In this document: positions 17,553-27,879 of the stretch, piece by piece
Numbering within the stretch: the first letter of the stretch is position 1
How the letters are laid out: each line of letters begins with the position of its first letter
DNA from: Methanothermococcus sp. Ax23
GTDB taxonomy: Archaea > AGJL01 > Methanococci > Methanococcales > Methanococcaceae
Reading direction: 5' to 3'
Assembly: GCF_049075655.1 (NCBI RefSeq)
Contig: NZ_CP157522.1
Span: 960,001-1,024,000 of the forward strand
Length of the DNA: 64,000 bases
Notes under the pieces: generated by a model
Told to the model about the DNA's origin: nothing
The model's database searches: none
The model's input: only the letters and a program-made list of their open reading frames with translations
Program-made: the position numbers and the translations under genes

Positions 17553-17765
17553 TTTTCATAAAACTGGTTTAATGATATATACAAAATATGGTTGAAAATA
17601 TATAAATAAATTTGGATATATTATATAAAATTGAATGATAAAATATTTATGAAATAACCCTTGGAAAATATAAAAAAGTATAATATGCCTATTTATTGGA
17701 TAGATTGCTTAAAATAAAGATGATGGAAATAAGAAAAAACAGCAAAAATCCTTTTAATAAAAAGT

Positions 17766-18071
17766 GGCTTCCTTGGGGTGGATATGAGCTCCTACTGTCC
17801 ATCTACCCCAAGTCCTACTCGATTCCGCTACCCTGTGAGCGTCGGTGTCCCACCTACCGCTGCTCCCTTCCGGGCCTGACGGGGTTCGGTGGATTAAGGA
17901 GGTTTGCCCACTCCCTACAGAGTGGGTCCCTCCACCGCCTTACCCCACAGGACGAAATGTCAACGCAGAACTTGGGAATGAACAGTAGAATGCCCATACC
18001 GCCCCCAAGTTTTCGGCTCCCGCATAAGACGATTTCGGGTTACAGGGGACGCCTAACCCCCCAGCCTAGCC
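17766..18071 (-). ncRNA. ffs: archaeal SRP (7S) RNA
   Basis: GC-rich ~306-nt island; minus strand has helix-8 motif GTCAGGCCCGGAAGGGAGCAGC, 5' GGCTAGGCTGGGGGGTTAGGCGTCCCCTGTAACCCGAAA Alu domain, paired ends and an upstream TATA. Confidence 0.93.
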
Positions 18072-18265
18072 AAATTACTATTTATATTTAACGTATATAT
18101 ACTTTACTATTATTATTTGATATTATCCATCTATTATCTATTATTTGTCTATCTGATATATCTTTAATTTAATTAAAAAGGAAAATATAAATATGTGGTG
18201 TTATAAAATTGAGTATATATTAAATTATATTATGATTAATATTTATTTATGTAAAGGAGGATAGT

Positions 18266-26367: not shown

Positions 26368-26443
26368 TATATCCCATTTTTAATTTATTTTTTATTTTTT
26401 TATTTATTTTATTTTTATTTATTTATCCAATGTCGGCGGGAAG

Positions 26444-26490
26444 TTTGATAAATTCCTTCGGAATTTATAAATGTCTTCGCTATCGCTCAG
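26444..26490 (+). repeat. double-hairpin short repeat nested in the left end of the element
   Basis: ATAAATTCC-TTC-GGAATTTAT then ATGTCT-TCGCTATCGCTC-AGACAT. Confidence 0.75.
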
Positions 26491-26517
26491 ACATCCCCTT
26501 CCGTAAGGTGGAGATGA

Positions 26518-26568
26518 GATCAGATGAAATGCTTCGCATTTCATTACTTTCCTTCGCTATCGCTCGGA
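26518..26568 (+). repeat. double-hairpin short repeat, second nested copy
   Basis: ATGAAATGC-TTC-GCATTTCAT then TTTCC-TTCGCTATCGCTC-GGAAA. Confidence 0.75.
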
Positions 26569-26778
26569 AATCCGACGAAAAATATAAATATTATGGCATA
26601 ATAAAATAGATATATAAATGGGCGAAAACCAAGCCCATTCTACACTATTTCCATACACCTGCGGAAGGCGGGGGTGAGCCTGTGGAGAAGTGAGCCCCTA
26701 CCTAGGTAGTTAATAACTACTGATGATGGCAAGCTCGTTCAGTGAAGCAGGAAGCCCCTTCCGTAAGGAAGGGGTACT

Positions 26779-27879
26779 TCACGTTCTTTTAATTACAATC
26801 GTAAGGATATCTCCATCTTCCAATACATGATTAAGCCCTACCCTTTGACCAGGATGTTTTGCAGATTTTCCCCATACTTGGGCATATCTAAAATTCTTTA
26901 CAAAATCTCTGTGAAGTTTATTACATACATCTTCAACAGTAGAACCTCTTAAAATAATAAGTGGTTCGTCAAGGTCTGGTTTTTTACCCTGTGGTTTTAA
27001 ATAAACCTTCATAAATCCAAGGGTATTAAAAATTTGTTCTTTTAATTCTTCAATATTAATATTTTTATGCCCTGAAACAAGAATGTGCGGTCTATCCTTC
27101 AAAACTTCTTCAATTCTCTTAATATGCTCTTCATCAGCTAAATCTATCTTATTCACAATAACAAGGGATGGGATATACACTCTGTTTGCACTAATCACAT
27201 CTATAAATTGGTCTGTTGTGATATCATCCCTTATTACGATATCTGCGTTGTGTATCCTATGCTCATGTAAAATTGCTACAATCGTTTCTTCATCTATGTT
27301 TGTTAAAGGAACTGTGGTGTTTATATTAATTCCACCCCTATCCTTTTTTACAATCTTAACATCTGGTGGTCTTTGGTCTAATCTAATGCCAACATTGTAG
27401 AGCTCCCTTTCAATCACTGGGATGTGCTCAGGTGAGAACACATCAACAACAAGCATCACTAAATCCACATTTCTAATGGCGGCTAATACCTCACTACCTC
27501 TACCTTTTCCAAATGATGCACCAGTAATAATCCCTGGAGCATCTAATACCTGTATTTTTGCCCCCCTATACTCTAAAATTCCTGGAATTATTGTTAATGT
27601 TGTGAAAGCATATGCTCCAACTTCTGAGTTGGCATTTGTAAGTTTATTTAAAAGTGTAGATTTACCTACTGATGGAAATCCTACAAAAGCAACTGTGGCA
27701 TCCCCTGTTTTTTTAACCGCGTAGGAGTATCCTGTCCCTGTGCTTTTTGGTTTATTTTGCATATCTCTTAATTTTGCAAGTTTCGCCTTCAATATCCCGA
27801 TATGTTTTTGAGTAGCCTTATTATACTGTGTATTTTTTATTTCGTCTTCTAATCTTTTAATTTCTTCTTGAATCCCCAT
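26779..27879 (-). CDS. drg: DRG/OBG-family GTP-binding protein with TGS domain
   Basis: QYNKATQKHIG, GFPSVGKST, YAFTTL, GKSAKHPGQRVG. Confidence 0.93.
   Translation of the reverse strand: MGIQEEIKRLEDEIKNTQYNKATQKHIGILKAKLAKLRDMQNKPKSTGTGYSYAVKKTGDATVAFVGFPSVGKSTLLNKLTNANSEVGAYAFTTLTIIPGILEYRGAKIQVLDAPGIITGASFGKGRGSEVLAAIRNVDLVMLVVDVFSPEHIPVIERELYNVGIRLDQRPPDVKIVKKDRGGININTTVPLTNIDEETIVAILHEHRIHNADIVIRDDITTDQFIDVISANRVYIPSLVIVNKIDLADEEHIKRIEEVLKDRPHILVSGHKNINIEELKEQIFNTLGFMKVYLKPQGKKPDLDEPLIILRGSTVEDVCNKLHRDFVKNFRYAQVWGKSAKHPGQRVGLNHVLEDGDILTIVIKRT

Follow-up and report, generated by a model that had tools for sequence, protein, structure and literature searches.

A protein-less IS200/IS605-type element with a predicted omega-RNA scaffold at the stop codon of a DRG-type GTPase gene in Methanothermococcus sp. 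Ax23

The window analysed here, a stretch of 64,000 nucleotides from Methanothermococcus sp. Ax23 (G000:C1:960001-1024000), belongs to a genome of 1.67 Mb that has 32% G+C and is 98.9% complete. On its minus strand, at positions 26779-27879, lies drg, an open reading frame (ORF) of 366 amino acids (aa) in which the Pfam domains MMR_HSR1, MMR_HSR1_Xtn and TGS give the architecture of a DRG-type GTPase. The 3' end of this gene is formed by an inserted element of 356 bp (26427-26782, plus strand), a protein-less member of the IS200/IS605 type, of the kind described as palindrome-associated transposable elements (PATE) or miniature inverted-repeat ones (MITE). It was inserted without target duplication directly 3' of TTTAT (26422-26426, plus strand), the target or transposon-adjacent motif, and ends in the cleavage motif TCAC (26779-26782, plus strand). 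No transposase or nuclease gene and no protein-family signal was found inside the element: the overlapping ORFs measure only 82 and 41 aa, and all 21 TnpB zinc-ribbon matches of the genome fall outside it. The original prediction, made from the letters of the window, had proposed an element of this kind, size and strand at this position, and the genome letters agreed with it at all coordinates checked.

With the element in place, drg ends AAA AGA ACG TGA, a stop codon that is complementary to the TCA of the element. On the minus strand the target motif reads ATAAA, which contains the original TAA stop, while the complement of TCAC supplies the G of ACG and the new TGA. The insertion therefore turns ACA TAA into ACG TGA and leaves the DRG protein unchanged. 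To compare the 3' ends of drg, 40 relatives were searched with the 3' part of the gene, and 29 orthologous loci could be read. In none of these 29 does the end of an element adjoin the stop of drg. The closest relative (G003) has a drg that is 90% identical; there TTTAT runs directly into GTTC and the gene ends AAA AGA ACA TAA, a precise empty site; ACA TGA or other contexts occur at the end of drg in G012 and other relatives. Since the sequence of G003 is the sequence obtained by removing the element, it establishes the boundaries, the lack of a target duplication and the silent exchange of stops. The insertion at drg postdates the split from the sister species.

The element is one of several copies in its genome. 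A BLAST search gave 25 to 28 matches, and pattern scans for the two ends recovered all of them; one such scan returned 38 loose matches, 14 of which have the hairpin and are counted as elements. These comprise five copies of the subtype represented at drg (M, 255-356 bp, all with defined ends), two shorter S elements, one element of 302 bp (E8) and six tnpB-carrying copies, namely IS_A and IS_B (family 3), E11 (family 4) and three F2 copies (family 2). Across their last 183 bases, the M copies share 92-96% identity; their left sides differ mainly by whole hairpin modules. All 14 elements terminate in TTCAC. The left terminus C[CT]AATGTCGGCG is common to nine, eight of which are preceded by TTTAT and the ninth by TATAT; the other five, belonging to families 2 and S, are preceded by TTTAA. 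Both ends of the element at drg are common to the tnpB-carrying IS_A, IS_B and E11, and a multi-copy repeat that shares both its ends with such copies is not a product of chance. A search of the 40 relatives with the last 183 bases did not find the M subtype outside its own genome; what matched elsewhere was no more than the hairpin at the terminus, some 35-40 nt long. The genome has about a dozen more tnpB genes; these are of another family, with a right end that terminates in GTCAG.

The anatomy of the element (all features on the plus strand) can be followed from left to right. The conserved left terminus CCAATGTCGGCGGGAAG (26427-26443) is the part common to IS_A, IS_B and E11, and the GTCGGCG within it (26432-26438) is able to pair with TCCGACG at 26571-26577. 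The left-end hairpins occupy 26448-26570, with a conserved subterminal hairpin at 26495-26513 and four optional small hairpin modules (26448-26468, 26473-26492, 26524-26544 and 26548-26570), each of which a given copy either has or lacks as a whole. A subterminal hairpin of the form CCCCTTCC-GTAA-GG..GGGG lies near both ends of the element, and the termini are not inverted repeats. In the alignment, the modules measure 20-25 nt, have short loops such as TTCG and show a mosaic presence among the copies. Similar nested hairpins were seen inside the right-end hairpins of distant relatives. The modules are reminiscent of the small repeats that in Haloquadratum target the palindromes of IS605, as far as the accessible part of that report describes them (PMC3119063).

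A box resembling a transcription factor B recognition element and a TATA box (CGAAAAATATAAATA, 26576-26590, with the TATA-like AAAATATAAATA at 26579-26590) is directed to the right end and is taken to be a retained tnpB promoter. This assignment, already made in the original prediction, gained support from the copies: the box is unchanged in all five M copies while the roughly 30 bases that follow it vary, and IS_A, IS_B, E11 and the F2 copies have homologous boxes upstream of tnpB. Next comes a remnant of the tnpB start (ATG at 26618-26620, with about 20 following bases), which falls in a small stem-loop (26617-26639); three of its seven pairs vary among the copies and all of them stay paired through G-U. 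The rest of the element, including the CCTGTGGAG...GAAGCAGGAAGCCCC region at 26679-26758, corresponds to the sequence that runs in IS_A from just after the tnpB stop to the right end. As the promoter, the tnpB start and the region after the stop are all retained, the deletion took almost exactly the reading frame. Three independent deletion derivatives have kept promoter and scaffold in this way: M from family 3, S from family 2 and E8 from family 4.

At the right end (26751-26774), the candidate DNA guide GAAG (26751-26754) is followed directly by the subterminal hairpin CCCCTTCC-GTAA-GGAAGGGG (26755-26774), as had been predicted. The hairpin is kept in copy M706 by a compensatory change. The GAAG fits TCAC under what we take to be the IS608-type pairing scheme. 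The tetranucleotide at the left end is AAAA in distant relatives, as expected for TTAT, and GAAG(A) in the local copies. Past the right end, the 16 nt at 26783-26798 (plus strand) form the predicted guide segment GTTCTTTTAATTACAA, which is defined by its position right after the scaffold, where TnpB systems have their guide, and runs antisense to the final 16 coding bases of drg.

The position of the promoter, which points into drg on the opposite strand, brings up the alternative that the host has taken the module over as an RNA independent of TnpB, acting as a cis-antisense transcript into the 3' end of drg or as a structured 3' untranslated region or spacer. The same spacer between drg and the next gene also holds a mini-element in G003, of family-2 type, independently inserted in the same orientation behind TTTAA, with its right end 19 nt from the drg stop (L027, ~420 bases before drg stop). 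Such a recurrence would fit a role at this locus. However, the same module is present at four other unrelated loci, its conservation is accounted for by the transposon family itself, and drg evidently does not need the element, as all 29 relatives' loci lack it at this site. A host takeover is therefore considered very improbable.

The nature of the 3' module was approached from outside the genome. A collection with one genome per species was scanned with the N-terminal half of the family-3 TnpB, which gave 237 relatives. The best of these are 61-69% identical and come from Methanosarcinales and Methanomicrobiales; metagenome-assembled genomes labelled as bacterial contribute a few hits. Within the own genus, the other TnpBs reach only 40-41% identity, and the 40 relatives searched contain no close homologue. 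The family-3 TnpB and its scaffold are thus closest to those of other orders, which points to a transfer between orders. In 22 of the 26 loci read, tnpB is an uninterrupted ORF of 370 aa, and it is followed by a region of about 96-106 nt ending in GTAGTTCAC. From 80 loci, 67 distinct regions downstream of tnpB were taken; the 50 with a length of 96-106 nt were aligned and used to build a covariance model (R1), which thus derives from intact tnpB loci of other archaea and contains nothing from the own genome.

The alignment of the 50 sequences yields four helices, in which 21 of 28 pairs show compensatory changes on both sides. Pairing cells make up 96.8%, compared with 74.4% after shuffling, and none of 500 shuffles attained any of five measures; sliding the partners lowers pairing to 37-49%. 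Model R1 matches the element at 26654-26782 (plus strand) over its full length (model positions 1-96 of 96) with 70.6 bits and an E value of 6.9e-19, and this is its sole match in the window. The four helices are P1 (within 26656-26676), P2 (CCTGT at 26679-26683 with GCAGG), P3, whose loop carries an insert of 37 nt, and P4, which is the right-end hairpin. Throughout the genome, nine matches reach at least 43 bits, namely the five M copies, IS_A (67.4 bits), IS_B (53.7 bits) and two S elements; the family-4 end scores only 21.5 bits. A model made from tnpB-adjacent regions elsewhere thus recognizes the element, so that its 3' module is, judged by position and structure, the omega-RNA scaffold of a TnpB. 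The omega-RNA identity put forward in the original prediction is in this way borne out by comparison.

A modest sign of constraint on the RNA (or on the top strand) comes from the M copies themselves. Among the variable stem pairs of the five copies, 12 of 14 stay paired on the plus strand, mostly via G-U, whereas the same structure read on the minus strand retains one of 14 and the minus strand's own best fold five of 14.

The scaffold also resembles a known RNA. RAGATH-18 (RF03064), the nearest Rfam family, is the right-end element RNA of the IS607 TnpB (PMC11061315), and in both RNAs a CCUGUGGAG ... UGAAGCAGGAA core closes a stem with a motif resembling a k-turn and the guide RNA lies wholly downstream of tnpB without overlapping it. 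RAGATH-18 elements differ in that, according to the part of the work available, they occur mainly in bacteria, rely on a serine recombinase and have AGGAG as their target-adjacent motif (TAM; PMC11061315). The corresponding core of the element (26679-26753, plus strand) stays below the threshold of the Rfam family, as it scores 22.1 bits and the best match in the genome 28.8 bits against a gathering score of 44.9. Five tnpB-adjacent loci of relatives (L132, L142, L157, L168 and L200) gave no Rfam 15 match at an E value of 0.01 or better.

Given these findings, the element is very likely a palindrome-associated, non-autonomous member of the IS200/IS605 group that derives from a solo-tnpB element and is probably an orphan now. 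Its ancestor would have been a solo-tnpB insertion sequence of a TTTAT-using clade, from which the tnpB reading frame was lost almost exactly; the left end, the tnpB promoter, the full omega-RNA scaffold and the right end would be what remained after this deletion. A single-strand (Y1) transposase provided in trans would then have pasted the element 3' of TTTAT without target duplication. What we infer beyond this is transcription, binding by TnpB and cleavage: the retained promoter would drive an RNA of about 170 nt made of the scaffold and a guide from the drg flank, and a matching TnpB carrying this RNA would cut chromosome copies that lack the element, recognized by TTTAT and the 3' end of drg, whereupon recombination would restore the element. 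The element was probably active until recently and has since been orphaned, since no Y1 transposase was found and both tnpB copies that match the scaffold are interrupted.

Several observations weigh against this account, or against parts of it. The cognate tnpA that had been looked for was not found: a search of the 98.9% complete genome for the Y1 transposase (PF01797) gave no match. Both family-3 tnpB copies are split into ORFs of 273 and 130 aa by one identical insert of 47 nt. In the copy at drg, about 49 bases of hairpin modules lie between the left hairpin and the GAAG of the left end, a spacing that might hamper mobility. Not every archaeon treats TGA as a neutral codon. A shuffle control on the five M copies alone was not significant (102 of 500) and is uninformative. 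Finally, none of the sequencing runs gave reads or contigs that reveal a transcript of the copy at drg. The one RNA library in which words of the stretch occurred yielded contigs for the IS_A copy and for drg only, and these may reflect DNA carry-over. The scaffold contig of this library is the IS_A copy running into its own flank, and it was set aside as uninformative on processing or on the copy at drg.

Among the 40 relatives, same-genus matches to PF01797 are confined to remnants (in G010 and in G003), and matches free of internal stops occur only in G015, G024, G032 and G040. The congener G010 holds a like-ended element in which a remnant of the Y1 transposase lies beside an intact tnpB of 424 aa. 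Four insertions in the Ax23 genome are younger than the split from G003, though no Y1 transposase gene was found there.

The 47-nt insert of the family-3 copies (G000:C1 ~439340-439400 and ~913720-913780; L107 and L110) lies between the residues KLI and CTENQ, which are adjacent in the intact 370-aa relatives. It consists of two small hairpins, and a core of 15-19 nt of the second hairpin recurs exactly at no fewer than ten other places in the genome. A reading of the insert as a bulge-helix-bulge intron was dropped, as the local fold gives two simple hairpins without such a motif. The two split copies differ by 48 substitutions in the N-terminal half, with pN/pS values of 0.14 and 0.11 in the two halves, which indicates purifying selection; they are identical over about 560 nt around the insert. 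This identical tract makes a recent conversion of the broken allele as likely as a tolerated insert. As both cognate copies are split, a trans-acting TnpB for this guide, which the original prediction had assumed, is not evident.

The genome does hold intact tnpB genes, with open frames of 418-455 aa in family 2 and of 421 aa in family 4. They raise the question whether the element functions at present as a partner that provides only the guide, with its omega RNA loaded by a TnpB made elsewhere that cuts element-lacking genome copies and so keeps the element fixed in a multi-copy genome. The nuclease would come from family 2 or family 4, or from family 3 if the 47-nt insert were bypassed at the RNA or translation level. 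Promoter and scaffold are kept in all five copies with substitutions that preserve plus-strand pairing, the scaffold core and right-end hairpin are common to the families, and both halves of the split family-3 copies show the purifying selection just described. PATE omega RNAs acting with TnpBs in trans have, moreover, been proposed in print in the Geobacillus work, to judge from the portion of it available. However, the family-2 TnpB shares an identity of only 37-44% with family 3 over the aligned segments, or 40-41% in a second comparison, the 5' parts of the scaffolds differ, and R1 gives the family-4 end a low score. The identical tract of about 560 nt can equally well be explained by gene conversion of a dead allele. 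A present-day partnership of this kind is thus possible but doubtful, and the orphaned derivative of a solo-tnpB element is preferred.

The exchange of stops is not unique to drg. When the empty sites of all 14 elements were reconstructed, four of the nine TTTAT-type elements were found on xxA-TAA-A stops of converging genes that encode 267-449 aa. Each of these insertions divides the final sense codon after its second base, so that xxA TAA becomes xxG TGA. At drg itself (M986), ACA becomes ACG and threonine is unchanged; AGA becomes AGG at M1036 (arginine) and AAA becomes AAG at E11 (lysine), again silently; at E8, ATA becomes ATG, which replaces isoleucine by methionine. The orthologous empty sites of G003 match the prediction exactly at all four stops. 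The xxA-TAA-A landing pad is therefore real and has been used repeatedly. The notion that any such stop is a neutral site holds for three of the four cases and fails for E8. Three further elements, M1154, M706 and S497, follow a converging stop at distances of 1, 5 and 0 nt. The TTTAA motif of F2b has its end on the TAA of a 395-aa gene that lies upstream on the element's own strand; F2a shows a similar pattern, but with an open frame of 111 codons that is below the gene threshold.

Whether stop codons are a mechanistically preferred target, beyond what selection tolerates, can be judged from the distribution of sites. With gene calls that are crude (1564 ORFs of at least 90 codons), 280 TTTAT sites of the genome overlap a stop, 4956 are intergenic and 14509 lie inside genes. 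Judged against the non-coding TTTAT sites, the expected share of stop landings is thus 5.3%, and the four of nine observed give a P value of 8.3e-4. The pattern also recurs among right ends in close relatives (2/19) and in usable distant elements (6/64), these being counts without a null for those genomes. The enrichment that had been anticipated thus stands against all intergenic sites. It fades, however, when the comparison is limited to sites no more than 30, 60 or 100 nt downstream of a stop, with P values of 0.10, 0.025 and 0.011, which become 0.56, 0.18 and 0.077 when the close relatives are pooled (6/28). In addition, six of the 14 local elements lie in short tandem spacers, 21-120 nt from the next start. 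They sit on or beside the stop of the gene upstream, which is the point furthest from the next start and its promoter. Such a placement is expected from selection alone. The excess at stop codons is thus most simply explained as what selection leaves over, and a genuine targeting preference appears improbable.

A bolder proposal is that the TTTAT target and the TCAC end form a matched pair, which makes every A-TAA-A stop a scarless pad and gives the element a guide made of the last coding bases of its host gene. The outcome would be a hold similar to addiction: an emptied allele that is cut would survive only by copying the element back, and sloppy repair would damage a gene that, like drg, is often essential. 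This proposal is speculative, and we give it little credence. Judged by titles and the openings of abstracts, no report on stop-codon landing of IS200/IS605 elements was found, and supplementary insertion-site tables may hold cases.

The closest published counterparts are the PATEs of Haloquadratum walsbyi, which are protein-less and derive from IS605-type transposons (with an IS1341-type tnpB) by deletion of the core (PMC3119063). In the available part of that report, these share with the element the lack of inverted terminal repeats, the subterminal palindromes and the absence of a target duplication. Recent insertions though the Y1 genes are absent or broken, and small repeats inserted in the palindromic ends, are also common to both (PMC3119063). 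Unlike the PATEs, the element resides in a hyperthermophilic methanogen lineage, and its deletion spared the promoter and the whole scaffold (PMC3119063). The same part of the report makes no mention of stop-codon landing (PMC3119063).

The idea that elements without protein genes bear omega RNAs is likewise already in print. The Geobacillus work, in the sections available, states that gene-less minimal IS200/IS605 elements "often encode omega RNAs", which are used in trans by the TnpB of other copies. As is predicted for the element at drg, the right flank supplies the guide and the motif of the left flank serves as TAM. An active transposase and active nucleases were demonstrated there, whereas in Ax23 no transposase was found, the cognate tnpB is split and the scaffold is different.

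A parallel among thermophilic archaea is provided by Sulfolobus islandicus, where, in the portion of the study available, the TAM is TTTAA for elements with tnpA and tnpB and TTTAT for those with tnpB alone (PMC10640517). Cleavage by SisTnpB1 was demonstrated next to TTTAA, and TTTAT served as the TAM in the design of editing experiments (PMC10640517). This pair of motifs is the one seen here for families 2 and S (TTTAA) and for families 3, 4 and M (TTTAT), and in both cases the omega RNA lies at a conserved right end with hairpins (PMC10640517). The Sulfolobus protein and RNA belong to another sequence family, and the elements described are full-length ones rather than mini-elements (PMC10640517). 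In a search by hairpin similarity, the left ends of only 8 of the 67 distant elements found here could be recovered, and the TAM of the distant clade rests on those eight.

The layout of the ends resembles that of IS608 from Helicobacter pylori, as given in the accessible text of that work. In both, the left motif is outside the element, about 17-19 nt 5' of the hairpin, the right motif is inside, a few nt 3' of the hairpin, and a tetranucleotide, a DNA guide in IS608 and a candidate one in the element, lies 5' of the foot of each hairpin (PMC3201880). The motifs are TTTAT and TCAC in the element and TTAC and TCAA in IS608, and the right motif begins 4 nt past the foot of the hairpin instead of 10 nt (PMC3201880).

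The new points are therefore the host lineage, a defined and covarying scaffold family, three independent derivations that kept promoter and scaffold, and four verified exchanges of a stop codon. The locus offers a clean example from nature, with all boundaries defined, of a putative guide-RNA gene that moves without its nuclease. At four before-and-after sites, the TGA of a transposon replaces a TAA, leaving the host protein unchanged in three and altering one residue in the fourth. The tnpB-adjacent guide-RNA family links hyperthermophilic methanococci with elements of Methanosarcinales. For the question of how TnpB persists, the genome provides mini-elements whose cognate nuclease has just been broken, and recent insertions in a genome where no transposase was found. 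The current picture of how TnpB elements work is left unchanged.

A few minor observations were made along the way. In the sequencing runs, no contig joins 26426 to 26783, as an empty allele would. Two contigs (X18 and X19) cross the right end into drg with 25 and 30 letters of the element; being under the 31-letter rule, they were not counted as bridging. Three weak Rfam hits in the region of the element (cyano-S1, sR22 and permuted tmRNA, E up to 10) were treated as chance, and no Rfam match to a SECIS-like family was found there. The sole Rfam match in the window at gathering thresholds is the archaeal signal recognition particle RNA, located at 17761-18076 on the minus strand with 249 bits.

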